From Mobula birostris (lineage: Eukaryota): a DNA stretch of 64,000 nucleotides. The DNA lies in contig NC_092377.1 in the NCBI RefSeq assembly GCF_030028105.1, positions 49,602,952 to 49,666,951 on the forward strand, in the 5' to 3' direction. Under the pieces are notes generated by a model, which saw only the letters and a program-made list of their open reading frames with translations, did no database searches and was not told the origin of the DNA. Positions 3,255 to 61,480 of this stretch are shown piece after piece (the stretch's first letter is position 1; each line of letters opens with the position of its first letter). The translations under genes were made by a program, and so were the position numbers.

Positions 3255-4085
3255 ATCATTCATAGTATCATATTTCACAGGGCCTTCAGTCCAACTCATC
3301 TATGCCAATGAAGTCAATCAGTCCCACTTGCCCACATTTGGCCCATATGTCTTAAAATTTCCTTATCCGTGTAACTGTCTAATTTTTTTTTAATTAATTG
3401 TACCTGCCTCTACAGCTTCTTCTGATAACTCATTGAAGAAGGCACACATAGCAATGCTTTTTTTAAACCATATAGTTCACCTGCGTTGACACTTTCAGGG
3501 AATTATGTATCTGAATCCCTAGATCTCTCTGTTCTACTATACTCTTCATCGTTCTGATATTTACTGTGCAAGTCCTGCTCCAGATTTGTTTATCAAAACG
3601 TTACACCTGCACTCATCCAAGTTAAATTCCATCTGCCATTTCATGGCCCACTTCCCCAGTCAATCTCTATCCCACTGTAATCTTCACTGCCCATTATAAC
3701 ATCATTAGGTCTTCATCTATATTAACAAGTTGGATGAGAATGCCAACTACATTCTCATCTGAATCATTAATACAAAAGATTAACAGTGGACCCAGCACTT
3801 ATCCACACAACTCATCACTGGTTACAATCATCCAATTTAGAAAACAATACTCCAGTACCACCTTGACTCCCTCCACTAAGCCAATTTAGTCTCTAGTTAA
3901 CCAGTTCACCTGGATTCCATGTGATCTAATCTTCTAATCTACCATTCAGAACCTTGCTAACTCATGTAGACAATTATCTCTGCCCTGCCCATGGCAATAT
4001 TCTTCATCATCTCTTCAAAAACACTCCCTGAAATTTGCGAGATATGATTTCCCATGCAAAAAGACAAGATAACTATCCTAATCAT
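3255..4085 (-). mobile_element. Old degraded CR1 LINE fragment
   Basis: Recognisable antisense CR1 RT motifs (aaattccatctgccatt, agtggacccagcact, tgatttcccatgc). No ORF left. Confidence 0.55.
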
Positions 4086-4817
4086 TCTTCATCTTTCTGA
4101 ATTCATATTCATTTATTTATCACATGTACATTGATACATCCAGTGAAATGTGTCATTTGTTGAGTTACAACCAACACGACCTATGGCAGCCCGCAAATAA
4201 CACCGCGAATTCCAGCACCAACATAGCATGCCCATAATGTTCAGTATAACAACACAAACCACAACAGTAACAAAACAACAACAAAACAAGCCCCTTTCCT
4301 CCCTCCTACCCACTCACACACAAACAAAAGCCTTTGACCCCAGGACAGACCGCCTCTAGGCCTCCAACCCACATTTCCTGGGCCAGGATCACAGACTTGC
4401 AGATTTTGGCCTTGGATTTTCAGACATGCCAACTCAGAGACTTTGCCCATCATGCCTTGATTTCTGGACTAACCAACTTTGGTCTTCGACCTTCAGATGT
4501 TATCCTTCATTATCGATCCCAGAACTCACTGATCATGGACTTTATCTCCAGCCCTCAAACTCCAGACTTGCATGGACCTCCAACCCCAAGACGCGCTCCC
4601 CCGGAGGAGGGGAGGGGGCGTCAACAGTCCTTGTGCCAAAATGCTGGTAGGTCCTGTCAATCAGAATCCCCTCCAGTAACTTTCCCACCAATGATGTTAG
4701 ACTCTCCGGCTTATTCTTGCTACTCTTTTTAAAAAGGCACATTGTAACCCTCCAATCTTCCAGTACTTGACCCTTGGCTGAACCTTGCTTATAATTCTGC
4801 ACAGGAATATGTGGCAA

Positions 4818-4835
4818 TACTGCCCTCTGGTGCCC
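4818..4835 (-). promoter_or_regulatory. CTCF-like motif
   Basis: Reverse complement GGGCACCAGAGGGCAGTA is close to the CTCF core CCACCAGRGGGC. Motif match only. Confidence 0.35.
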
Positions 4836-4877
4836 TTGGCATTGGTTAATGGAGTGAAAGCATGCTGACCATTTCCA

Positions 4878-5315
4878 GCAACACACATAAAAATTGCTGG
4901 TGAATGCAGCAGGCCAGGCAGCATCTATAGGAACAGGTACAGTCGACGTTTTGGGCCAAGGCCCTTCGTCAAGACTAACTGAAAGAAGAGATAGTAAGAG
5001 ATTTGAAAGTGGGAGGGGGAGGGGGAGACCCGAAATGATAGGAGAGGACAGGAGGGGGAGGGATGGAGCCAAGAGCTGGAAAGTTGATTGGCAAAAGGGA
5101 TATGATAGGATCATGGGACGGGAGGCCTAGGGAGAAAGAAAGGGGGAGGGAGGGAGCCCAGAGGATGTCAGGGAGTATAGTGAGAAGGACAGAGAGAGAA
5201 AAAGGAGAGAGAAATTTTTTTAAAATTATATTTATATATAATAAATAAATGAATAATGGATGGGGTACGAAGGGGAGGTGGGGCATTAACGGAAGTTAGA
5301 GAAGTCAATGTTCAT
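4878..5315 (-). mobile_element. Penelope-like element 3' end/pLTR with mutated hammerhead motif
   Basis: Near-identical (reverse complement) to 49628-50040. The hammerhead at 4941-4976 has TTGACGA and CAAAA substitutions. Confidence 0.8.
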
Positions 5316-6380
5316 TAACGCAAGTTAGCTTGTTTCACAGCAGAAAGTCAATGAGACATTGCCCTTATGTCCTTGTTATCCTTATGCCTTTGATGCAATT
5401 TTAAAATCAGTTATTCACAAGACAATATAATTGCTTTCGTATGATTGCTTGGAAACTTAAACTATATAGTCCCATAAACTCCAAGAATAAAATGATATTT
5501 TTAGCGCAGGATCAGACTAGAACTGCAACCAAGTGGGCCAATCACTTATCTTTCATTTCTACGGGTCACAAACTACACTGAACCAGCTGCTCTCATCAAC
5601 TCCTTTATCCACATGATAGCATCTTAAAAGCAGAAATTTATCATTGTTTAAAAATATATATTAAAATGACAGGTGTCTGCTATGTTCAAATCAAATAGGT
5701 TGAAAATGAGAAAAAATTCTATTGCCTTAGAACAACCTATCAGTCAATTTCAGTCCTAATGCAAGTTCTTAATCCAAAACATTGACAATTTCTTCCGCCA
5801 TTCACCCACACCCCACAGATGTTGTTCGACCTTCTGAGTTCTTTCAGTGGTTTGTTTTGTGGTCCATTCACTCCTCATATTGTGCATGCATAACCATTAG
5901 GCCATACTGTACTATTTATCATGCAGGTACTCACACTGAAGCCTGATTCTACAAACACCTCCATATACTTTTCACCAAAGACTTCTGGATTGTAGTCAGT
6001 AACCAGTACAGTATTAGTGGCTATTTTTTTGTTATATCTTTACAATTAAGTGTAAAGAGCCAGAAAACGATTTGTTACAAATACTGCATAATCTTGGTCT
6101 TTCAAATCTATTGGCTCAATGGTAAAAAACTTAATGAATGTATCTACAAAGCTATTAAAGATCAAATGAAATGTTACAGCAATGGCTTTAAAAATGTTTA
6201 ATTTATTTTTTCCCCTGGGAGTTAATATTCTAGAATTTCTTGGGAAGTTTCAAGTATCAAGGAGGGACAGTGTCAGGGCAGACTGATCTGAGGATGCTAT
6301 CAGTGGGAAAGGACTGGGACTGCGTGGAGAAAGATTGGTGGTAGCGTATTTTGGAGGAGGCTGTTGAAGACTTAATGGGC

Positions 6381-7160
6381 AAAAGACTGATTATGGACTT
6401 CAAGAAGGGTAAGACGAAGGAACACATACCAATCCTCATAGAGGGATCAGAAGTAGAGAGAGTGAGCAGCTTCAAGTTCCTGGGTGTCAAGATCTCTGTG
6501 GATCTGACCAGGTCCCAACACACTGACATAGTCATAAAGAAGGCAAGACAGCAGCTATCCTTTATTAGGAGTCTGAAGCGATTTGGCATGTCTATAAACA
6601 CACTCAAAAACTTCTATAGTTGCATTCTGACAGGCTGCATCACTCTCTGGTATGGAAGGGCTACTGCACAGGACCGAAAGAAGCTGCAGAAGGTCGTAAG
6701 TCTAGTCAGGTCCATCTTGGGCACTAGCCTACAAAGTACCCAGGACATCTTTAGGGAGCGGTGTCTCAGAAAGGCAGCATCCATTATTAAAGACCTCCAG
6801 GACCTAGGGCATGCCCTTTTCTCACTGTTACCATCAGGCAGGAGATACAGAAGCCTGAAGGCACACACTCAGCAATTCAGGAACAGCTTCTTCCCCTCTG
6901 TCATCCAATTCCTGAATGGAGTTTGAAGCTTTGAACACGACCTCACTTTTATTAATACACAGTATTTCTGTTTTTGCAGATTTTTAATAATCTATTCAAT
7001 ATATGTAACTGATTTACTTATTTATTTATTATTGTTTTGTTTTATTTTATTTATTATTTTTTTCCTCTTTCTCTGCTGGATTACGTACTGCATTGAACTG
7101 CTGCTAAGTTAACAAATTTCATGTCCATGCCGATGATAATAAACCTGATTCTGGTTCTGA
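6381..7160 (+). mobile_element. Rex/Babar-type LINE 3' fragment
   Basis: ORF 6351-6926: VERVSSFKFLGVKISVDL...KKARQQLSFIRSLKRFG...HALFSLLPSGRRYRSLKAHTQQFRNSFFP. Tail AATAAACCTGATTCTGGTTCTG. Confidence 0.85.
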
Positions 7161-9112
7161 AGCATACAGAGTTGATAGAGTGCATCTGGCTGTGAATAAA
7201 GTTTGCATAGGCAACCAAAAAGTTTTCCATTGCAAGAATAGTGCTGCCATCTTCTGCACAGACTCACTGTCAGTCCGCAGATTGATCAGCATCTGGCACC
7301 AGTTTTGAATTGGGTGACATTTTACAGCCTGGCTTACAGGGATGTATATCGTGCAAGAAAAAATAAAAGAGGGAAGGGAAGCAGGGTAGCAAAAATAGTA
7401 CTGTTCCCAGAGCCTACATTAGACCTCACTGTAACAGTGCAGGGGACCAAAAACAGGGCTTAATATGCTAGAGGGGCAATAAATTAAAATGACAGGCAAC
7501 CAGAAGTTCAAGGTCACTCCTGTGAATTGAATGCTGCTACTCCACTGCAGGTGATCCAAACTGTTTGATTTCTCCGATGTAGAGGAGGCCACATCATGAG
7601 CACTGAATGCAGTACAAATGAATCACTGCTTCACTTGGACTGTTATTTGAATTCTTGGTTGGTGGGAAGGAAAAAGGTGAATGCACAGGCATTGCATTTC
7701 CTTCAGTTACATGGGAAAGTGCTATCAAAATCTGGTTCAGAGGAGCCAGGGCATGCAGCAGGAATTTGTTGGGAGTGAAAAGCCATGATATAACAGAGCT
7801 GGGAATGCAGGAGTTGCACTTTCTCAGACAGGAAAGAATCTGGTCATCAAGCACACAATGTTATTGGTGTTGCTATGTGTGGTACTGGAGTGGCCCAAAT
7901 GCCACTCCAGCAATGTAGCTGTTCATCTGCCACTTAATTTATTAATCCAAAGTGGATCATATCCACAGGGATGTGATGTATAGTTCTCCTGAGAAAGAGG
8001 GGAAGAATGTAACTTAACCATCACCTGATGGCTACCTTTGATTGTGGCTAAACTAAGCACTGTATAAATTCTGGGTACTCAATTATCAGATGTCACTACT
8101 TGTCGAGGCTGTACTTGTCCCTGATGTGGAGAAGAATGGGTCAGTGCCATGGAACATTCCATTTAGGTGGGCCATGCCATACTACCGGTCCTTCATTGTA
8201 AAATTTATTTGGAAAAGCACCTTTCACCACAAAGCTGTCCTGGAGGAAAATGCAAAAGATTCTGTCTGACAGAGTGCCTCATCAACAGAAATTTCAAACA
8301 AGCACCAAGTCACTTGATTCATTTTGAGAACACCCAACTCCTATTAGACCATTAATGTATACCAGGAATCTAAATACGCTGCATGCTGAGAAGGTCATTC
8401 ACCTTCCTGTATAGTTTGAAGACTGTCTAGAAATTAATCCAGTTGTCTTCGTCGAGATTTATGTTGACCAGCTGCATGATGCTAGACTGAACTCTATACA
8501 CTATTGCTTTGCCACATATGAAGAAAAGCTTTGACTACTGCTGGAAGGTCTGGACTGCCTGAAGCTTGTTAATCTTCTGGTGCCAAGAACTGTCTACAAC
8601 CAGTCCTGTCCAGGGACCTCTGCCATTAATGGAGTTAAGCACAGCCCGTTTAGCATCAATGATATTGACATACGAAACATTATCCCTCCAGCCCGAAGGT
8701 CTTCTTAAGAAGAACGTAAATGTGTTTTATTAAAAGGTTTAATACTGCAATACTGAATGGCAATATAAACGTTATTAATTTGATTTCATTGGGGAAAAAA
8801 CACAAGGATCACCTCGTTTCAAACAAGAAAAAATATGGGATGCTGAAATATGCTAGAGGAACTCAGCAGGTCTGGCAGCTTCTATGGAAAAGAGTAAACA
8901 GTCGACGTTTCGGGCCGAGACCCTCCATCAGGATCACCCTGTTTGTTTTCTCCCGTCTGAAAGAATGGTGCCAAGCTCGAAACAGCAAGGCCGCCAGGAA
9001 TGAATCCTCCGCCCAGGAATGCAGACCTGAAATATTACACAATAATAATTCACATTTTAAGCGGGCAGTAGCTTTTGCTGAGAATGAAAGGGCCTGGAGC
9101 CCAAGGTCTTAC

Positions 9113-10393: not shown

Positions 10394-11956
10394 CAGGTTT
10401 CCCCCGCCATCCGAAGGTAGAGCATTCCTATGAAACGGTTCGTAAGCCGGAATGTCATAAAGTGAAGAAGCAGTTACCATTTATTTATATGGGAAAAATT
10501 TGTGAGCGTTTGCAGACCCAAAAAATAACCTACCAAATCATGCCAAATAACACATAAAACCTAAAATAACAGTAATATACAGTAAAAGCAGGAATGATAT
10601 GATAAATACACAGCCTAAGAATACTTTTCTACAATCATTGCCACACTGTCCACTGTAGCAAAAATCTCAAGCAAGCACCCTCGGCAGAAACACTCTCTCC
10701 AGTAACCTTTAAGCTATGAAGAGGCCAAATCATATCAAATAACACAAAAATACACAGCCTATATAAAGTAGAAATAATGTATGTACAGTGTAGTATCACT
10801 TACCGGAATTGGGAAGACAGCGCCAAGCACACTGATGATGGTGTGTTAGGCTGAGTCGTCGGAGGTTGGGGTGGTGCAGTGGTCCCCAACCTCCAGGCCG
10901 CAGACCGATAACGATACGCGAAGAATGCAGTGGTGCAGCGGTAGCCGGGACACACCCAGCACATCTTTAAGAAAAAAAGCCAAAATAAACAAGCTAATTA
11001 ATTAGATGCTGCCCGGCACCAAATTAATTAGCTTGTTTATTTCGGCTTTTTTTTCTTAAAGATGTGCTGGGTGCGTCCCGGCTACCGCTGCACCACTGCA
11101 CAGTTCGCGGCAATGTATCGGTCTGCGGCCCGAATGTTGGGACCACTGGGGTGGTGAGACACTGAGATGTCATCTCATTGTCGTCTGTTTCCATCAGGGT
11201 AGGCAGGTCATCTTCTTCTATGTCTGCCTGCCTCATTGTTGAAGGTCGAGGTTCGTCATCTGCTGTGGCTGGTGTGGAAGGCTTGAAAAATGACAGTATG
11301 CTTGATTGCTTAGCCTCGCGCATTTTTCTATCATACAGTTCTTTGTAAGCACTCAAACCATCCTGCAAATATGCCCTTTCAAAATTAAAGTGGTACTTTT
11401 CTGCAATCACTGCAGCGAAAATCTCATGCAGTTGCTTCACGTTCAATTCTTGGACAACTTCACTTTCGGTCTGTTCACTACTGCGTTCGGTTTTGATTGT
11501 TATCCTTTCCTCTTCCAATTGCATCAGCTCTTCATCTATCAGTTCTTGGTCATGGGATGCCAAAACCTCTTCAACATCATCTTCGTTAACTTCCACAAGC
11601 CAAACTCACTTTGTCCTTACTTCGTTCACCATGATCGAAACGTTTAATTATGTCTAGTTTTACACTAAGTGTAACACCCTTACGAGCTCTTTTAGGCTTT
11701 TCCGACACCTTAGAACTCATCTTGCAAATGGATGCTCAAAATAAATCGACATAAAGCACAGATGCTCACAGGCACGTGTTTAAGCGATGCCAGCTAGAAT
11801 GCAGTTCCGGGGGAGGAGCTTGACTGCTCGGGGCATGCGCTGCCTTTTTTCGTAACAGTGAAAACACCTTCTGTTAGCGAAAACAGGTAACGAATGTAGG
11901 TCTTTTGTAACAGCAAAGTATCACAAAGCGAACGTTCGAAAAACGGGGGGCACCTG
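10394..11956 (-). mobile_element. TcMar-Tigger/pogo deletion derivative with transposase C-terminal remnant
   Basis: TA TSD. TIRs CAGGTTTCCCCCG ... CGGGGGGCACCTG. ORF 11024-11596 (EVNEDDVEEVLASHDQELIDEELMQLEEE...AYKELY...KQSSILSFF) resembles Tigger transposase C-termini. Confidence 0.85.
10877..11148. mobile_element. 272-bp palindromic hAT MITE nested in the Tigger element
   Basis: CAGTGGTCCCCAA ... TTGGGACCACTG. Perfect 8-bp TSD GGGTGGTG (10869-10876 / 11149-11156). The arms are inverted repeats of each other almost to the centre. Confidence 0.9.
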
Positions 11957-12394: not shown

Positions 12395-12995
12395 TTAATT
12401 CCACTTTCCACTCCCATACCAACATGGCTGTCCACATTCTCCTCTACTGCTAAATTGAGGCTTTGATGCACATTAGAGGAACAGTGTCTCATATTCCACC
12501 ATGGTGGTCTTCAACCTGATGGCATGAACATCAATTTCTCCAACTTAGAATAATCCACTACCTCTGTCACTACTGTCTTTTCCCTTATCTCACTCACTCC
12601 AATACCCTTTCCTGTTCTCTCGATCTGCATATCACCTACTTCTCTGGTTCCCCTTCTCACCTCAAGGTCCACTACTATGAGATTTCATCATCTTCGCTTC
12701 TACCTATTACTTTCCAAGTTCTTACATCATTCCCATTTTCCCCACCCTGATCTGCCTGTCTACCCCTTCACCTTTCACTCATCACTTGACAGCTCTGTCC
12801 AGCAAACACTCTTTCCCCCCCCCCCCCCAATCATTTTATACCGTTATCTTCCGTCTTTCCTTCCAGTCCTGAAGGAGGATTTCAACCAGGAACATCAACT
12901 GTCCATTTTGCTCGATAGATGCTGCCTGTCGCACTGAGAATTGCTCTAGCGTTTTGGGAGTTGCCCAGATTTCCAACATATTACACTCTGTTGTG
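12395..12995 (+). mobile_element. Degenerate Penelope-like 3' fragment
   Basis: GIY-YIG C-terminal remnant (HFNSTFHSH...LQPDGMNINFSN), pyrimidine-rich pLTR and a decayed hammerhead. Confidence 0.7.
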
Positions 12996-17140: not shown

Positions 17141-17589
17141 TCGATGTTTCGGGCGGAGTGTTGAAGGGTCTCAGTCCAAAACGTCAACTGTATTCTTTTC
17201 CACAGATGCTACCTGATCTGAGTTTCTCCAGCATTTTGTGTGTGTTGCTTGGATTTCCAACATCTGCAGATTTTCTCTTGTTAGAGATATGTACAGTAGG
17301 TTTTCAGATATTAATAGTATCGGAGTATGGGTTAAGTGTAGGAAAGTGGTAGAGGTAAAAGGTCACAGGTCTACTCCAGTTTATCTTGTTACAGGTTATT
17401 AACATCCAAGTATTCTTTTTAAAAGAATAGTAATTAAAGAAATCCTCCTGCAAACTGGGACTTCGGAAAAGCAATCTAGCTTACATTATTTGAAATGTAT
17501 CTTTTCAAATGGAGGCTTTTTGATTCATTGATGCTAGGTCTCAGATTCACTCCACCATTTACATCCCTAAACCTATCTTCTCATGTGTT

Positions 17590-17792: not shown

Positions 17793-19872
17793 ACCTTCTG
17801 TACTTGGAGTATTTACTGTATTTCAAACACAGACATTCAGCAACTGTTCTTTTCAAAAAGTGCATTAGTTAATGCTCCGTTTGATTCTAAACTAAATCAC
17901 CAGGCACCCTACCGCTATGATTTTTATTTTGCAATTCTACGATATTGGATCACACTTAAGTTTTTAGCTACAGTAATCATTGTCAATTTCTTTGCTGCTC
18001 CTCCCTTTCCTGACTATTTCTGTTCTGAAAACTCAGTTCAGAAAGAGATGATGTGGAGAAGGGACACACAGAAGGATCAATGTGTGCAGTGCAAGGACAG
18101 GAATCTGGCAGTATCAGTGTGTAAAGTACACAGCAGAATGCACTTCAGTATCTCAGGAATAATGCATGTATAAACATAAAGATCTTAATGCTTCCAAAAT
18201 AAAACTGAAGTGTATTATGGATTAAACAACTTTCAACTCTAAAACGGCAAAGTTCAGAGTGGAAGCAAATAACCGTAGTCTTTTTCTTTTTCAAGTCAGG
18301 GTTTCAAAGAAAGGAATACTGTCACTACTTGAACATTCATTGTCAAATAATTCAGTTTGCTTTCACATGACCCTAATCTCCAGTTGTCATGAGATTTCCT
18401 ATTGGTCATATATATATATTCCTTGTGTTTATCTTTCTCAACACAAAATCTTGCATCATGAGTTTCGTTCTCAGTTTCAACTTTTTCTTTTTTATATCAC
18501 ATTTTGATTCAAATTTTGGGCAAAATAAGACTGATACCAGTGTTGTAATGCATAGTTATTCATTTTTAATCCCAGGTTTCAAAGTGTAAGCTAATTACCT
18601 TTTCACTTTCTCTGCCTCCCAACTTTCTCCTACTTACTTCTGCACAAAGTTCACAATATTGTGTTCTATATCGTTGCCCTGAAAATACTTGATAAATTTT
18701 AATTTCATTAACAACTGTCTTCACCTTTTTTCACTAGGAATTTATTGTTGTGAGAGCTCACTATTGTGGAAGCATTTCATTGTCAATAAATCAGAAAAAT
18801 CATTTGCATTCTCTTGTGATCTCATCCCTAACTAATGTAATTATACATGGAGATCAGTCCAGAGTATTGCATTAATAACTGAGAGTTGAACCATTTCCCA
18901 CAAAGCCCACACCAATCTTCAAGCCCCGGTAATACTAATCCTACTCTAATCTATATACTACTAAAACTCTCACGCTCTGTTTTTTCTGTTTTTGTGACCT
19001 CCAATTAGCGCAAACGGTGCATTACAGCAGCACTTTTTTGGGCTAAATTGAATTAAAATGCGCTAACTTACAGAATGCAGGCAAAGTTCAGGGTTATATA
19101 TTGGTATAAGATTTCTCATTCGCCAAAAATCAACAGGCTGGCTTTCACCCGAGATGCGATCGGCCATCATGGAAATTGGGACGTGACAGCCCGACGCATG
19201 CACACGGCTAGCCTCAGCAGCGACATCTACCGGAGCAAAAGGGCAGGGCAGCTCTATTTTGAGGGGTCACATTCTGCTAATCATCACCATCAGCATGTGC
19301 AGGATTGGGACAGATCTAACTGCCACCCATCAATAAGAGATAATTAAATCTTATTGTAATGACGTACTCCAGGACACCCATAAAACCCTTTGCTGCAGTC
19401 AAAGGACAGCGGTGACTATATCACATCCATTTAGGAGAGCGCCAACCACATCATCAAGAATAATCAGCATCCTTTGGTGTTAGTGCTTTGTATCTTCTAT
19501 CCAGCATTAGGGTAAAAAAAAAATGGTCAGCCTAATTATGCCGCGTGGAAAGGGAAGGGGGACATTATGGTCAAGAGATGATGCCAGACGTCGTCAGGAA
19601 GTGGCAAGGAGAGGGAGAGAACAAGAATCAGATGAGGCCAGGGCCGCACGACTCCAGGATCAAAGAGTCAGGACAAAAAAAATGAGAGAAGAAGAGACAG
19701 AGGAGGGGAGGCATGCATGTCTCCAGGATCAGAGGCAAACAACAAACAGCAGAAGGGATGAAGAGACGGGGGGGGTGGGGGTGAATGTCAACGAAAGGCA
19801 CAAGGGTGGCAGAGCAACACTCACAACGTGCCCGAGGAACTCAGCAGGTCGGGCAGCATCCATGGAAATGAT

Positions 19873-19910
19873 CAGTCAATGTTTCGGGCCGGAACCCTTC
19901 GTCAGGACTG
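19873..19910 (-). ncRNA. Minimal type I hammerhead ribozyme motif (AUU site)
   Basis: Reverse complement CAGTC-CTGACGA-AGGGTTCCGGCCC-GAAA-C-ATT-GACTG. Confidence 0.55.
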
Positions 19911-20440
19911 AAGAGGGAAGAGGCAGTGGCCCTATAAAGGAGGTGAGAAGGAGAAGGCTGGTAGGTGCCAGGTGAAAAACCAGTAAGGGGAAAGATCAAG
20001 GGCTGGGGGAGGGGAAGCAGGGAGGTGATAGGCAGGAAAGGTGAAGAAGGAATAGGGGAAAACACAATGGGTAGTAGAAGAAGGCGGAACCATGTGGGAG
20101 GTGATAGGCAGCTGGGGGAGGGGGCAGAGTGAAACGAAGGGGAAGGGAATGACCAGAAGTTGGAGAATTCTATGTTCATGCCCAGGGGCTGGAGGCTACC
20201 CAGACAGTATATGAGGTGTTGCTCTTCCAACCTGAGTTTAGCCTCATCCTGGCAGTAGAGGAGGCCATGTATGGACATATCTGCATGGGAATGGGAAGCA
20301 GAATTGAAGTGGGTGGCAACCGGGAGATCCTGTCTGTTGTGGCGGACGGAGTGGAGGTGCTCAACGAAGCGGTCCCCCAATCTGTGTTGGGTTTCACCGA
20401 TGTAGAGGAGGCCGCACTGGGAGCATCGGAGGCAATAGAT

Positions 20441-21224
20441 CAGGGGTCCCCAACCTTTTTTGCACCATGGACCAGTTTAATATTGACAATATTCTTGTGG
20501 ACTGGGCTGGGGGCGGGGGGGGGGTTTCAAATAGGGTTAAACTCACCTCGGCATGTCTTTTACAGTTAGGGTTGCCAACTTTCGCACTCCCAAATAAGGG
20601 ATAAAAGTAGCAGTCAAATCCCGGGACACTTTACACCAGGAAGGACTACCATGACCATGAAGCCTTGCGCGGGCACCTGTGTGCGCATGTGATGTGCGCA
20701 TGCACGTACATGCCGAATTTTTTCCCCACAAATCAGCTTTGCCTTCATCTTCCCGACTATACTGCACATACATTATTTCTACTTTATATAGGCTGTGTAT
20801 TTATCATATCGTTCCTGCTTTTACTATATGTTAGTGTTATTTATTTTCAGTTTTATGTGTTATTTGGTATTAAATTATTAGGTTATTCTTTGGGTCTGGG
20901 AACGTTCAAAAATTTTTCCCATATAAATTAATGGTAATTGCTCCTTCGCTTCACACCATTTTGGCACAAAAGGTTTTATAGGAACATTCTACCTTAGTGG
21001 GAGAAATCCGAGAGAAGGGTGGTCCCGTATGGGACAAACCAACTTATCCCAATATACAGGATGTCCCAGCAAATACGGGACTGTTGGCAACCTATGTTCA
21101 AGTTCAACAGTACATGACAGGGAATGAGGAAAGGTGCAGCTGACTCATATCATTTCGTCGCGGCCTGGTAGCACATGCTTTGCAGCCTGGTACCAGTCCG
21201 CGGCCCGGTGGTTGGGGACTGCTG
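20441..21224 (-). mobile_element. Composite hAT MITE, copy 2
   Basis: CAGGGGTCCCCAAC ... GTTGGGGACTGCTG. 8-bp TSD CAATAGAT/TAATAGAT. Colinear in reverse with 53-783. Confidence 0.88.
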
Positions 21225-21919
21225 TAATAGATGACCCCAACAGACTCACAAGTGAAGTGTTGCCTCACTTGGAAGGACTGTTTGGGGCCCTGAATGGTGG
21301 CAAGAGAGGAGGTGTAGGGACAGCTGTAGCACTTGTGCTTACAGAGCTAAGTGCCAGGTGGGAGATCTGTGGGGAGGGACGTGTGGACCAGGGAGTCGTG
21401 GAGGGAACGAACCCTGCAGAAAACGGAGAGGGGTGGAGAGGGAAAGATGTGCTTAGTGGTGGGGTCCTGTTGAAGGTGGCAGAAGTTGCGGAGGATAATG
21501 TGCTGGATCCGGAGGCTGGTGGGGTGCTAGGTGAGGACAAGGGGAACTCTGTCCCTGTTGTGGTGGCGGGAGGATGGGGTGAGGGCCAAAGTGCAGGAAA
21601 TGGAGGAGATGCGGGTGAGGGCATCATTGATGACGGCAGAAGGGAAACCATGATCTTTAAGAAAAGAGGACATTTGAGATGTCCTGGATGGCAGATAAGC
21701 CAGAAATGATGCCATCAAAAGTGTCCTTCGTTAAATGAGCAGCTATATTTGCTTTGCTGTGCATCATTCTTCTTCAATAAACTGAGGTTTTCTACTTCAG
21801 TTTCCAAAGCAAAGTGATACCAATGGCATTCAGGAAAATTTAATGTTCATTCTGGTCACATCAAAGGGTGCCCCAACGGGTGACCCCGTTGTCTAATCTT
21901 TTTTAAATTTCTCTCCGCT

Positions 21920-22876: not shown

Positions 22877-22934
22877 AAGCTTTATCAGCCAATGGTAGAT
22901 CTGCAAATGAAAATGGAAACCCATCCAGAACAAG
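22877..22934 (+). CDS. nsl1: NSL1 exon 4
   Basis: ttgcag acceptor; KLYQPMVDLQMKMETHPEQ (human KQYHPVVHP). Donor GTAATC, 58 nt; phases fit exons 3 and 5. Confidence 0.88.
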
Positions 22935-23377
22935 GTAATCACCTAGCATAAATTTTTGCTATAGACCTGAGTTAATTAACACAATAAAACAACAGAAGGT
23001 AGTTATCAAGTAATCTTTTACATCAGGGATAACATCTTTTAAATGTTGTAATGGTACTCACCTCTACTACTTCCTTGACAGCGTGTTCTACATGCTCACT
23101 ACTTTCTGTGTGGTTGGAGGAAAAGGAGTTGTCCCTCAAGTTCCCATTAAATCTTTCTCCTCTCACCTTAAATTTACAGTATGTAATCTAGTTTTAGACT
23201 CCCTTATTCTGGGAAAAAGACTTTCTCCACCCCTCAGTTTCTGTGCTCAAGGCAAAAAAGGTCCCAGTCTCTCCAGCCACTTGTACTGTACTCATGTCCC
23301 TGTAAGATCCTGGTGAATCTTTCCTGTACCTTTTTCAGCTTACAAACATCATTCCTATGATTGACCAGAACTGCACA

Positions 23378-23413
23378 AGTCCTGACGAACGGTCTCGGCC
23401 TGAAACGTCGACT
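23378..23413 (+). ncRNA. Minimal type I hammerhead ribozyme motif, intact core (GUC site)
   Basis: AGTC-CTGACGA-ACGGTCTCGGCCT-GAAA-C-GTC-GACT: stem I AGTC/GACT, CUGANGA and GAAA boxes, palindromic ACGT in place of stem III. Confidence 0.75.
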
Positions 23414-23510
23414 GTACCTCTTCCTAGAGATGCTGCCTGGCCTGCTGCGTTCACCAGCAACTTTTATGTGTGTTGCTTGAAATTCCAGCATCTGCAGAAT
23501 TCCTCGTGTT
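23378..23510 (+). mobile_element. Short Penelope pLTR insertion inside an old CR1 fragment
   Basis: Identical family to 40918-41198 and 49943-50040. Flanked by TGCAC on both sides. Confidence 0.8.
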
Positions 23511-23631
23511 TGCACGATACTCAGTGTGGTCTCACCAACAACACCTTGCAACATGACACCCCAACCACTAGGTGCTAACTCTTTTTGGTATTTGTGCATT
23601 GGCCAATTTTAATATGTATGCTTTTCATTAG

Positions 23632-23699
23632 TGTTCAAGGAAGCAGAAATATTGGAAAGTACATCAAAAAATTGTCAAGATATGAGTGAAGCCATGAAG
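23632..23699 (+). CDS. nsl1: NSL1 exon 5
   Basis: cttttcattag acceptor; (V)FKEAEILESTSKNCQDMSEAMK (human ...EISEAMK). Donor GTAAGA, 68 nt. Confidence 0.92.
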
Positions 23700-39808: not shown

Positions 39809-40917
39809 GTCATAAAAGAGATAAACTACCTTTTAACTGAGTAATGAAATAGGTATTTAAATGAAATACAGAAAAGAAATTGACTAGCTATAACACTAGC
39901 AATACCACTGTACTGACAAATTGTGTATTAGTTCCTGAAATTGATCGATGGAAGAGTTCATCCAGTGTACACTGCTGTGTTCCTTTGATTGACTGTAAAT
40001 GAACAAAATCAGCACAGACGCCAAGTGCAAAAATCAATCTATTATGCTATTCATTGCTTTCTTTGAACCTAATTGTGTTGCATTTTTGTAGCCAAGGGAA
40101 CAGTTCAGCATGGTATGATGAAAAAAGACCTGTTTCATCAGCATTGAAGATATCATCTGCACAAAATTTTTGAAGCAAGTAGGGGAGTTTTGTAGATTTC
40201 CACATTTCTGCAATTACAACTTTAGCACCATCTTTCCCACTGTTTGCTTTCTTGAATTTAATGTGGTGCCAACATTTCCATCTTCTTAGCTAGCTCCTCT
40301 GACTTATTTTTCAAATATTAGTCTACTGACATGCATACCTCATCCAGTTACAATGGAAAATCATTGATTGAGATCCTCCTAAACAACTGGATACCTACCT
40401 TCTTGCTTTTCCTTCTCAGATGTTCCCCGTTGTCCCTTGAATAATGCATATTCTTCTTGCAGTTTATCTCGCAGATTTTTTAAAATTTCAAAATATACTG
40501 TATTCAAAATTAAATATATACAATAAACCATTCAATAACTTTTCATTCTTTACATACGTTTCCATTATAGTCAGTACATATCCGTATTTATAGCCACCCA
40601 TGTGCAACTCCAGCAGTCCAGCTTACCATATCATTGTTGAGGGGTATACTCCCCGCCCCCGACCCCTCCCACTCCCACGGGTGGAGAAACCTATACTGTG
40701 GTCCTTCCCCACTGGGCCCTTGCGGTGTATCAAGCATGTAATTGTAGATTTCGGCACTGCAGTTATCTCTGTTAGCTGACGATGAGTGGTGTTTGGAGGA
40801 TAGCTTTTAATTTAGTAGAGGAGGGTAATTTTTTCAGCTGATGTCATTTTCTTGTGCCATCTTGGCAAGGATCTGAATTATTAAAAAAATTAATAAAACA
40901 AAGCTATCAGAAATCAA

Positions 40918-41198
40918 GCAACACACATCAAAGTTGCTGGTGAACGCAGCAGGCCAGGCAGCATCTCTAGGAAGAGGTACAGTCAACGTTTCGGGCCGAG
41001 ACCCTTCGTCAGGACTAACTGAAGGAAGAGCTAGTAAGAGATTTGTCTTGACAAACCTTCGTTAGTCCTGACGAAGGGTCTCGGCCCAAAACGTCGACTG
41101 TACCTCTTCCTAGAGATACTGCCTGGCCTGCTGCGTTCACCAGCAACTTTGATGTGTGTTGCTTGAATTTCCAGCATCTGCAGAATTCCTCGTGTTTA
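40918..41198. mobile_element. Fold-back (inverted) Penelope pLTR insertion
   Basis: Two inverted arms of about 100 bp. 14-bp TSD CTATCAGAAATCAA (40904-40917 / 41199-41212). Confidence 0.9.
40981..41016 (-). ncRNA. Minimal type I hammerhead ribozyme motif, intact core (GUU site)
   Basis: Reverse complement AGTC-CTGACGA-AGGGTCTCGGCCC-GAAA-C-GTT-GACT. Confidence 0.65.
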
Positions 41199-49436: not shown

Positions 49437-50040
49437 AGTACAGCACTAACTCTGGCTCTGGCAGCCAGAGAAAGCATGATCTCCCAGTGGCCACACATTT
49501 TAATTCCACATCCCATTCCCATTCTGACATGTCTATCCACGGCCTCCTCTACTGTAAAGATGAAGCCACACTCAGTTTGGAGGAACAACATCTTATATTC
49601 CGTCTGGGTAGCCTCCAACCTGATGGCATGAACATTGACTTCTCTAACTTCTACTAATGCCCCACCACCCCCTCGTACCCCATCTGTTATTTATTTTTAT
49701 ACACACATTCTTTCTCTCACTCTCCTTTGACCCTCTGACTATACTCCTTGCCCATCCTCTGGGTCCCCCCCCCCCTTTGTCTTTCTCCCCGGGCCTCCTG
49801 TCCCATGATCCTCTCATATCCCCTTTGCCAATCACCTGTCCAGCTCTTGGCTCCATCCCTCTCCCTCCTGTCTTCTCCTATCATTTTGGATCTCCCCCTC
49901 CCCCTCCCACTTTCAAATCTCTTACTAACTCTTCCTTCAGTTAGTCCTGACGAAGGGTCTCAGCCTGAAACGTCGACTGTACCTCTTCCCAGAGATGCTG
50001 CCTGGCCTGCTGCATTCACCAGCAACTTTGATGTGTGTTG
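49437..50040 (+). mobile_element. 5'-truncated Penelope-like element with TSD
   Basis: DLPVATHFNSTSHSHSDMSIHGLLYC...LEEQHLIFRLGSLQPDGMNIDFSNF* followed by the pLTR. 11-bp TSD CAACACTAAGC (49426-49436 / 50041-50051). Confidence 0.9.
49943..49978 (+). ncRNA. Minimal type I hammerhead ribozyme motif, intact core (GUC site)
   Basis: AGTC-CTGACGA-AGGGTCTCAGCCT-GAAA-C-GTC-GACT. Confidence 0.72.
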
Positions 50041-50845
50041 CAACACTAAGCTTGAGCTTTTTCTAACAATCCACGTCTTACTTCTCAGCTGGCTTATTTT
50101 GCTCAGAATGGCCCATCTCCTACCATCCTCCCTGAATTCCAGTCTACTGGATGAGTGTTAGTTTCATTTGGCCCGATAAAGTTTTGTTACAGCACAGAAA
50201 GGGGTCAACCATCCCAGCAGGCCTGTGTCAGGTAGCTCAGCCTCTTCCAATATCCAGACCCTAGAACCTTCTGAGCCATTGATATAGACTCACATCGTTG
50301 GTATAGATCAGGTCATGCTGGAATCAAAGCCAAAGAAATCTAACAATGAATAAACCAATCTATTTCTAATTGTAGATTAAAAAAAGACTAATCCAGAAAT
50401 CGATCCAGCTTTCTGTCCTGAAAAAATGCCTATTCTATTTTTTTTAATAATCTTTTCCTCTTTCATCTTTTACTGTCCGTTCTCTTCTGCCCTCTCCCCA
50501 CCCACCTGACGGCTGTCATCTCTAACCATGTTTCTTATAATTGCTTAGGTAAATCTTTATGTTTATGTAAAGGTTAACAAACCAATTATAATTTCTGTCT
50601 GCTCTTTTGATTCCCAATGTTACACATGTATGAGCAATTCACTTGTAATGATCATGCACTGAAAATATGTGTGAATGAAGGCTTTCACCCCAATTTCCTC
50701 TTGTTTTGAACTCTGGTACTGTAAGATTAAATTCCCAGGCAACTTGACTGAAGCTAATTTTAATGATTAATATTCTTTTAGCTTACTCATTTTTTTAAAA
50801 TGGGTTTGAGTTCCTCTTCTTTAAGACTTGCTTTTTTTTTTACAG

Positions 50846-59622: not shown

Positions 59623-59813
59623 ACAAGTTCTAATTTCTCCAGAATCACTCAGCTCCAGAGCACATCACAAGGTTGGTCCAAATATTGACCAAAGATCTGA
59701 ATTCCAGAAATGAGATGAGGGTGCCAGCCTTTGACATCAAGGCAGCATTTCACAAAGTGTTGCATCAAGAGCACTTGGAGAAATAGCTATTGAGTGGAAA
59801 ACGTTCAGAATCA

Positions 59814-60000
59814 AACAACAGGAATTCTGCAGATGCTGGAAATTCAAGCAACACACATCAAAGTTGCTGGTGAATGCAGCAGGCCAGGCAGCATCTCTAG
59901 GTCCTGACGAAGGGTCTCGGTCTGGAACGTCAACTGCACCTCTTCCTAGAGATGCTGCCTGGCCTGCTGCATTCACCAGCAACTTTGATGTGTGTTGTTG
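59814..60000. mobile_element. Fold-back Penelope pLTR insertion
   Basis: Inverted arms flank a hammerhead with a GGAA substitution. 14-bp TSD AACGTTCAGAATCA (59800-59813 / 60001-60014). Confidence 0.85.
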
Positions 60001-60004
60001 AACG

Positions 60005-61480
60005 TTCAGAATCAGATTTATTGTCAGACATACGTCATGAAATATGTTCTTCTCCAGCAACTGTACAGTGCAAATACATAAAAATTGCTATAGATCACAA
60101 AAGAATATATATAAAAAAAAAGTACAAAAAGAGAGTAAGATGTGAGGTTGTGTTCATGGGTTCAGGGACCATTCAGAAATCTGATGGCAGACAAGAAGAA
60201 GCTGTTCTTAAATCATTGTGTGTGTTTCATCAGGCTCCTGCACTTCCTCTTTCGTGGTAGTAATGAGAAGAGGGTGTGTCCTGGATGGTGAGAGCCCTTC
60301 ATGATTGATGCCACCTTCTTGAGGTATCTCCTTTTGAAGATATTGTCAACAATGGAGAAGCTAGTTTCCAAGATGGACCTGGCTGAGTTTACGAACTCTT
60401 TTGATCCTGTGCAATGGTGCTTGCATACCAGAGGGTGGTGTAAACAGTCAGAATGCTCTCCAGAGTATATCTGTAGAAACTTGCTGGAATCCCAGGTGAC
60501 AGACCAAATCTCCCCCCAATTCCAATGAAGTATATCTGCTGGCATGCTTTCTTTGTAATTGCATCATTATGATAGATCTTCTGAGATGCTGACACCCAGA
60601 AACTTGAAACTGCTTCCTCTTTCCTATTCTGATTCTGAGGATTGTTGTGTGGTCTCCTGACTTCCACCTTCCTGAGGCTCACAATCAATTCCTTTGTCTT
60701 ACTGACATGGGGTACATGGTTCTTATAGTAGAACCACTCAACCAGCCAATCTATCTCATTCCATGCCTTCTCATCACCATAGGAAATGCTGTCAACACAG
60801 TTGTTTCATCAGCAAATTTCTGGATGGCATCTGAGCTGTGCCTAGCCACACAGCCACGAGAGTGGAGCAGTGGGCTAAGCATGAATCCCTGAGATCTGCC
60901 TGTGTTAATGGTCAGTGAGGAGGAAATGTCATTTCTGATCCACACCAACTATGGTCTCCCGATGAAGAAGTCAAGGATCCAGTAGCACAGAGAAGTACAG
61001 AGGCCCAAGTTGATTAATAACGAGGGGATTATGGTGTTGAACACTGAACTGTAATCAATAAATAGCAGCCTGACGTTGGTTTTGCTGTTGTCCAGAGGGT
61101 CCAAGGCCGAGTAGAGAGCCGATGTGATTGCGTCTGCTGTATACCAGTTGTTACCATAGGCAAATTTGAATGGGTCCAAGTCCTTTCTCAGGCAGGAGTT
61201 AATTCTAGTCATGACCAACCTCTCAAGGTGCTTCATTACAGTGGATGAGAGTGCTATCAGGTGATAGTTGTTGAGGCAGTTCACCCTGTTCTTCTTGGAC
61301 AACAGTTTGATTGATGACCTTTTGAAGCAGGTGGGAACCTCTGACTTCTGCAGGGAGAGGTTGAAGATGTCTTTGAACACTCCAACTAGTTGGTTAATCC
61401 AGGTTTTAACTCTCTTGAAAGATGTTCTGATGTTGGTCTCAGTCAGATATCACAGAGTCGCCAGATGCTGCAGGGATCCA
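60005..61480 (-). mobile_element. Rex/Babar LINE RT fragment
   Basis: FKDIFNLSLQKSEVPTCFK, VRLLFIDYSSVFNTI, QKFADETT and HPGHTLFSLLP motifs; GACAATAAATCTGATTCTG tail. Confidence 0.88.

Follow-up and report, generated by a model that had tools for sequence, protein, structure and literature searches.

Does the pre-mRNA of nsl1 carry a ribozyme able to cut it? The question is raised by a hammerhead motif at 23378-23413 of the window, meaning the whole stretch of 64,000 nucleotides of Mobula birostris DNA analysed here. The host gene, on the same (plus) strand as the motif, was modelled with six exons, an open frame and GT..AG introns, and its exon 3 matches the Pfam family Mis14 with 27.4 bits, the cut-off being 24.9. 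Exon 4 (58 nt, 22877-22934) and exon 5 (23632-23699) bound an intron 4 of 697 nt (22935-23631, GT..AG), in which the predicted cut site lies 222 nt upstream of exon 5. A sequence-only reading of this DNA had placed a hammerhead on the sense strand of this short intron of the kinetochore gene nsl1, 697 nt long, about 220 nt before exon 5; sequence, orientation, intron, distance and host gene were all found to be as it had them. The exon limits were also seen in two contigs, X9 and X17 (organisms A and B), where exon 3 and exon 4 are followed by exon 5 directly after position 22934. These contigs come from two runs guessed to be RNA and, being assembled, cannot reveal RNA ends, rare cleavage or rare isoforms; missing intron cover in them was left out as evidence. 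In assembled form at least, intron 4 is removed exactly. Most of this intron is transposon debris, the element that carries the motif being nested in an older, multi-copy repeat fragment (approximately 23008-23360 and 23514-23560), which resembles a CR1-type LINE.

Read from the plus strand of the window, the motif is AGTC-CTGACGA-A-CGGTCTCGGCCT-GAAA-C-GTC-GACT. The 5′ strand of stem I, AGUC (23378-23381), from which truncation has removed the family's fifth pairing base, is followed by core positions C3 to A9, CUGACGA (23382-23388). Next comes an extra A between positions 9 and 10.1 (23389), described as typical of the minimal hammerheads (min-HHRs) of Penelope-like elements (PLEs) in PMC4209133 and present in 217 of 219 family motifs from the loci that we fetched. 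Stem II and its loop (23390-23401) lead into the segment 23402-23409, which holds the core GAAA, a loopless ACGU palindrome (23405-23408) that would form stem III in a dimer only, and C17 at 23409, after which the cut is predicted; the 3′ strand of stem I, GACU, occupies 23410-23413. The single-stranded core is complete (C3-A9, G12-A14, A15.1, U16.1 and C17). A descriptor made of a 4-bp stem I, the core and the paired 15.2-16.2 palindrome matched three times in the window (at 23378, at 49943 and once on the minus strand) and never in 200 shuffled windows, so the motif is not a product of chance.

PMC4209133 defines min-HHRs by four features: stem III lacks a loop, 15.2-16.2 is palindromic, one additional base stands between 9 and 10.1, and the pair G10.1-C11.1 is highly conserved. 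The nsl1 motif has the CUGANGA...GAAA core and an NUH cleavage triplet, together with the loopless palindrome (CG at 15.2-16.2, as in 171 of the 219 family motifs) and the extra nucleotide. The dimer-only architecture proposed by the earlier reading, with stem III reduced to a palindrome, is therefore that of the published class. The Infernal-type search with hammerhead models, which the same reading had put forward as a check, did not go its way: an Rfam scan returned no hammerhead at gathering score over the whole window, nor any at E values up to 10 within 23200-23650. Four weak matches by E value in the latter interval, CPEB3 included, fell far below gathering score and were taken as chance. 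We conclude that the nsl1 motif is a min-HHR of the published kind, and not a match to the canonical type I model.

Intactness is another matter. The family's G at position 10.1 is replaced by C in the nsl1 copy (23390), and the first pair of stem II is thereby a C·U mismatch, with three pairs left. This is the sole position at which the nsl1 copy carries a rare base when set against 28 close sisters. Exact 31-mers counted genome-wide gave 34,387 copies with G10.1 and 94 with C, that is 0.27%, about the level that sporadic mutation after insertion would be expected to leave. Good hammerhead activity needs a purine-pyrimidine pair at 10.1-11.1. The G-C pair at this position is all that miniribozymes are reported to retain of helix II (PMC544870), and the conserved G10.1-C11.1 pair is absent from the nsl1 copy. 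Its stem I has 4 bp, compared with 5 in untruncated sisters, because truncation took away the fifth partner. The “intact core” claimed earlier thus stands for the unpaired residues, every one of which is present, and falls for the helices, where G10.1 to C breaks the base of stem II and stem I is reduced to 4 bp. With C·U in place of the G10.1 pair kept by the family, the nsl1 copy is a decayed derivative rather than an intact member.

Two other accounts of stem II were discarded. U at 11.1 is no private defect, since 17 of the 28 sisters have it and G·U is a common family state; an alternative register found by eye, with A23389-U23401 as first pair, places C·C next and brings no rescue. Among the 219 sister motifs, a sample biased by its origin in fetched loci, 10.1-11.1 is G·U in 145 and G-C in 62. 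In this subfamily G·U is commoner than G-C beyond the decay seen at neighbouring CpGs, and a wobble-bearing source element therefore probably spread successfully. We also observed three C10.1-variant copies about 43.5 kb apart at G000:C1731:50043-137352, probably a tandem segmental duplication.

The motif heads a 136-nt insertion (23378-23513, plus strand) which starts at the first base of stem I, much as the earlier reading had it (about 130 bp, beginning exactly there). It is 96-99% identical to 29 genomic sisters and, over 104 nt, 93% identical to a repeat located 296 nt downstream of a 745-aa RT + GIY-YIG frame at locus L255. Pfam scores of that frame lie under the cut-off for both domains (GIY-YIG, E 0.0016; RVT_1, E 0.024), and RVT_1 passes at L248, a locus of a sister subfamily (E 1.2e-8). 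RT motifs, a CX4CxxC linker and GIY-YIG can be read in the L255 frame, the linker being present in the translations of L255-L257, between RT and EN as the CX2-5CxxC linker is in Neptune elements. Long copies have an ORF ending in a GIY-YIG domain, with this repeat about 300 nt downstream of it. The insertion is accordingly a 5′-truncated end fragment of a PLE, made of the pLTR hammerhead and a tail, and the Penelope origin suspected from the letters is borne out by the RT + GIY-YIG frames that precede this repeat. The linker suggests Neptune/Nematis rather than Penelope/Poseidon, as far as such features can place an element. Ends of the sisters tell the same story: 3′ ends cluster at about +98 to +104 and +127 to +137, some 35 nt apart, inverted 5′ copies accompany many sisters, and target duplications of 6-14 bp flank several short ones. 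Two 3′ ends, inverted 5′ copies and target duplications are hallmarks of EN+ PLEs, according to PMC8557442 and PMC11167929, as is the arrangement of a 5′-truncated repeat downstream of RT plus C-terminal GIY-YIG with an optional tail of 30-40 nt. In the nsl1 copy that tail, of about 35 nt, corresponds to 23477-23513, judging from the sister 3′ ends and the tail described in PMC11167929.

The family is very large. The tail 26-mer occurs exactly 40,806 times in the genome. In 70 evenly spaced 10-kb samples (700 kb), 82 matches were found, 32 of them with at least 88% identity, which extrapolates over the 4.0-Gb genome to about 4.7×10^5 fragments in total and about 1.8×10^5 at that identity. The window itself holds 12 further BLAST matches of the kind of the 136-nt segment, and the nearest close sister of the nsl1 copy on its own strand is at 41064, 17.7 kb away. 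Longer copies of the same subfamily are seen at 49628-50041 (plus) and 4878-5315 (minus), the former connecting the C-terminal portion of the endonuclease ORF with the hammerhead end, and head-to-head inverted pairs of the end fragment, typical of the inverted 5′ structure of Penelope, at 40914-41197 and 59812-60013. A longer copy of a sister subfamily (19813-21680, minus) lies in nsl1 intron 3; its GIY-YIG region is split by an insertion of about 780 bp (approximately 20441-21224) with terminal inverted repeats, relatives of which are found at 45-711 and 10398-10817.

How old is the nsl1 insertion? In a relative, organism C, the site is empty: one contig aligns across the two flanks and has 18 letters in the stretch for which the window has 160. 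Comparison with it points to a candidate 5-bp target duplication, TGCAC, at 23372-23376 on the left and 23511-23515 on the right, the right copy overlapping the last three bases of the element. Two contigs of organism B enter the element from either side, by 23 and 26 letters, below our 31-letter rule; the insertion is likely, though not firmly, common to organism B. Being seemingly shared in this way, it would have persisted through at least one species split. On these contigs the insertion is lineage-restricted. The combination expected of a domesticated ribozyme, conservation at the orthologous site with a motif more intact than its source family, was not found.

Insertions beginning at stem I are not peculiar to nsl1; the whole family has a hotspot there. 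A copy was counted as a junction when none of its three upstream bases agreed with the family, and by this rule we scored 1,352 junctions at the first base of stem I among 32,018 copies. On inspection, thirty such loci divided into 12 clean junctions, 11 inversions or rearrangements and 7 sister-subfamily cases. At the cut site, 284 junctions among 40,806 copies were scored, three times the +36 control (95); a −15 control gave 127 matches, a raw count that has no denominator. Among 12 cut-site loci that were inspected, inversions or small deletions were flagged in 10, one was an internal deletion, and one had an unrelated, clean flank. The genome-wide counts show no dominant accumulation of 5′ junctions at the cut site. 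In the pooled samples, aligned with gaps, 17 of 55 5′ ends fell within −5 to +13 and none of the 55 at +31 to +35, 30 of them being blind beyond +33 because they were anchored on the tail.

Since copies retain bases 5′ of the cut site, their templates were uncut, which suggests that, genome-wide, templates of this element are mostly so. The hotspot may mean that reverse transcription ran off an RNA 5′ end close to stem I, or else that it stalled or switched template there. In untruncated copies (for instance 49915-49942, and L005) the sequence just upstream of stem I looks to us like a branch point with a pyrimidine tract and CAG, and presumably could also be taken for an initiator (TCAGTT); a 3′ splice site or a transcription start at this place could explain the hotspot. 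The PLE of Anolis agrees, as unprocessed RNA is reported to be its main substrate, and no RNA-seq ends at the cut site are reported for it (PMC11167929). Junctions at stem I versus the cut site thus offer a genomic test of whether PLE ribozymes cut RNA before reverse transcription.

Taken together, the nsl1 motif is very probably an inert passenger, a min-HHR at the head of a PLE end fragment which is spliced out uncut. From a start at the internal tail site, reverse transcription of the element would have copied an uncut template as far as the leading edge of the hammerhead, either running up to it or halting there; integration of this short cDNA at an endonuclease nick would have followed, and the transversion at 10.1, presumably neutral, would have been acquired later.

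The alternative that survives best, although we hold it to be improbable, has the insertion acting as a repeat and not as a ribozyme. Its partner would be the antisense Penelope copy of intron 3 (19813-19909), and their duplex would loop out exon 4, leading to exon skipping or A-to-I editing, with the hammerhead sequestered as well. The two copies flank exon 4, 3.5 kb apart, and the predicted duplex reaches −125 kcal/mol, compared with a mean of −53 and a best of −69 kcal/mol for 100 shuffles. A sense copy at 17163, however, competes for the same partner (−98 kcal/mol) and is transcribed earlier, and such inverted pairs must be very common at the copy density given above. Moreover, the RNA-type contigs include the exon 3-4-5 order, and they show no sign of exon 4 skipping, rare forms being invisible in them. 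Any effect of the insertion on nsl1 would be no less plausibly due to double-stranded RNA than to catalysis.

Catalysis itself would have to take place in trans. The nsl1 monomer cannot fold into an active form because its stem III has no loop, and PLE hammerheads are said, after Lünse et al. in 2017, to cleave as dimers. No intact sense partner was found in the same pre-mRNA: the cores of the sense relatives at 12863 and 17163 are incomplete, and the 19909 copy is antisense. In any dimer the nsl1 copy would, from its sequence, be a crippled enzyme half. The min-HHR tested in PMC4209133 was reported to be inactive as a monomer and weakly active as dimers. The broken stem II does not by itself bar the nsl1 strand from the role of substrate, because the cut strand uses the core of its partner. 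One may then picture nsl1 RNA joined to an intact sister in a double hammerhead, perhaps with the aid of a PLE protein, and cut so that nsl1 mRNA is lowered or tuned. The required substrate half, ACGUC^GACUG, is unchanged in the nsl1 copy, and the 34,387 exact G10.1 sisters could serve as partners. Pairing is nevertheless predicted to be poor: whatever the partner of the nsl1 copy, ViennaRNA put the Kd of the heterodimer at 2-7×10^−5 M, and in a secondary-structure model correctly folded complexes (L005 with nsl1) scored less favourably than the unbound monomers by 12-15 kcal/mol, a penalty that is overstated because tertiary energy, like protein help, is uncounted. The trans half-complex would rest on about 9 bp which compete with each strand's own stem I.

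Published intronic ribozymes bear on what such a cut might do. As cited in PMC2995048, splicing was blocked by a fast HDV ribozyme but not by slow intronic hammerheads; the nsl1 intron, of only 697 nt, is short-lived. In a zebrafish intron, canonical monomeric hammerheads of natural type are reported to knock mRNA down less than 3-fold, and a fast, engineered one to lower the gene 13- to 20-fold (PMC11856399). The Anolis PLE hammerhead showed no cleavage in vitro until PLE protein, reported in PMC11167929 to switch on its otherwise silent activity, was supplied, and by analogy such assistance would be the only route that keeps the trans-cleavage idea alive. Against it also stand the empty site in organism C, the junction counts with no dominant pile-up at the cut site, and the fact that nsl1 is not singled out among the many copies. 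We regard cleavage of this kind as less probable again than repeat pairing. The latent regulatory cleavage site that the sequence-only reading had seen in nsl1 pre-mRNA is not upheld, given the broken 10.1, the restriction to a lineage, the lack of an intact partner in cis, the weak predicted pairing in trans, the inactive monomers and weak dimers of min-HHRs, and the exact splicing of the intron in contigs of two organisms.

A broader form of the idea, in which an active Penelope supplies protein and intact transcripts that form double hammerheads on sense intronic copies and cut host pre-mRNAs genome-wide, copies with a dead stem II included as substrates, has in our estimate a slimmer chance still. 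If trans cleavage were true, even dead copies would allow the transposon to control, or to harm, genes of its host, and the question of what PLE hammerheads do in vivo would have its answer. Least probable of all is that G10.1 to C was selected as a way of silencing a sense-strand ribozyme that did mild harm in an essential gene, for although the only private substitution in 136 nt hits a conserved ribozyme position, and the organism B contig shows no difference at 10.1, this is one event where about 1/8 of random hits would strike a conserved position, the monomer is inactive anyway, and the change leaves the substrate strand unprotected.

The preferred reading, that of an inert passenger, fits known systems well. 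Like the PLE pLTR min-HHRs of Cervera and de la Peña 2014 (PMC4209133), the nsl1 motif has a type I layout with a short stem I and a loopless stem III, its 15.2-16.2 is palindromic, one nucleotide is added between 9 and 10.1, and it belongs to single motifs dispersed from truncated PLEs. It differs from those described there by the loss of G10.1, its family by frequent G·U at that pair, and stem II by its length of 4 bp; the family count obtained here also exceeds the 4,000-9,000 motifs given for coelacanth and Xenopus. As min-HHRs in Penelope pLTRs are already published, the nsl1 motif, one decayed copy among very many, matters little. The Anolis Poseidon element PAc (Frangieh et al. 2024, PMC11167929) resembles our family by a hammerhead near the element end, by two 3′ ends about 35 nt apart (the tail) and by insertions made from uncut RNA; in contrast to PAc, the ORF here has the CX4CxxC linker between RT and EN, and the family is known from sequence alone. 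With the Neptune-clade EN+ PLEs of PMC8557442 it shares RT followed by a C-terminal GIY-YIG, a Zn-finger-like linker, 5′ truncation, inverted 5′ copies and an optional tail, a likeness at the level of features.

A search by title, with the subscription literature mostly outside its reach and survey supplements and species tables not covered, gave no paper on a PLE hammerhead of cartilaginous fish. Conservation between distant species and folding as a monomer mark the amniote intronic hammerheads and CPEB3, whereas the nsl1 motif is a lineage-restricted, mutated transposon copy in need of a partner. What these ribozymes have in common with it, as described in PMC6765202, is that the motif lies in an intron, on its sense strand. 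Non-LTR retrozymes (bioRxiv 10.64898/2026.07.22.740005), whose survey is stated to cover one chondrichthyan genome, likewise have PLE-derived type I hammerheads and many dispersed monomers; they are defined by tandem arrays with at least two hammerheads, unlike the nsl1 copy, which is a solo monomer. A repeated arrangement of another kind was observed at G000:C38:20408865-20485540, where eight endonuclease matches lie about 10.9 kb apart on one strand, which suggests a tandem array or segmental repeat containing a Penelope copy.
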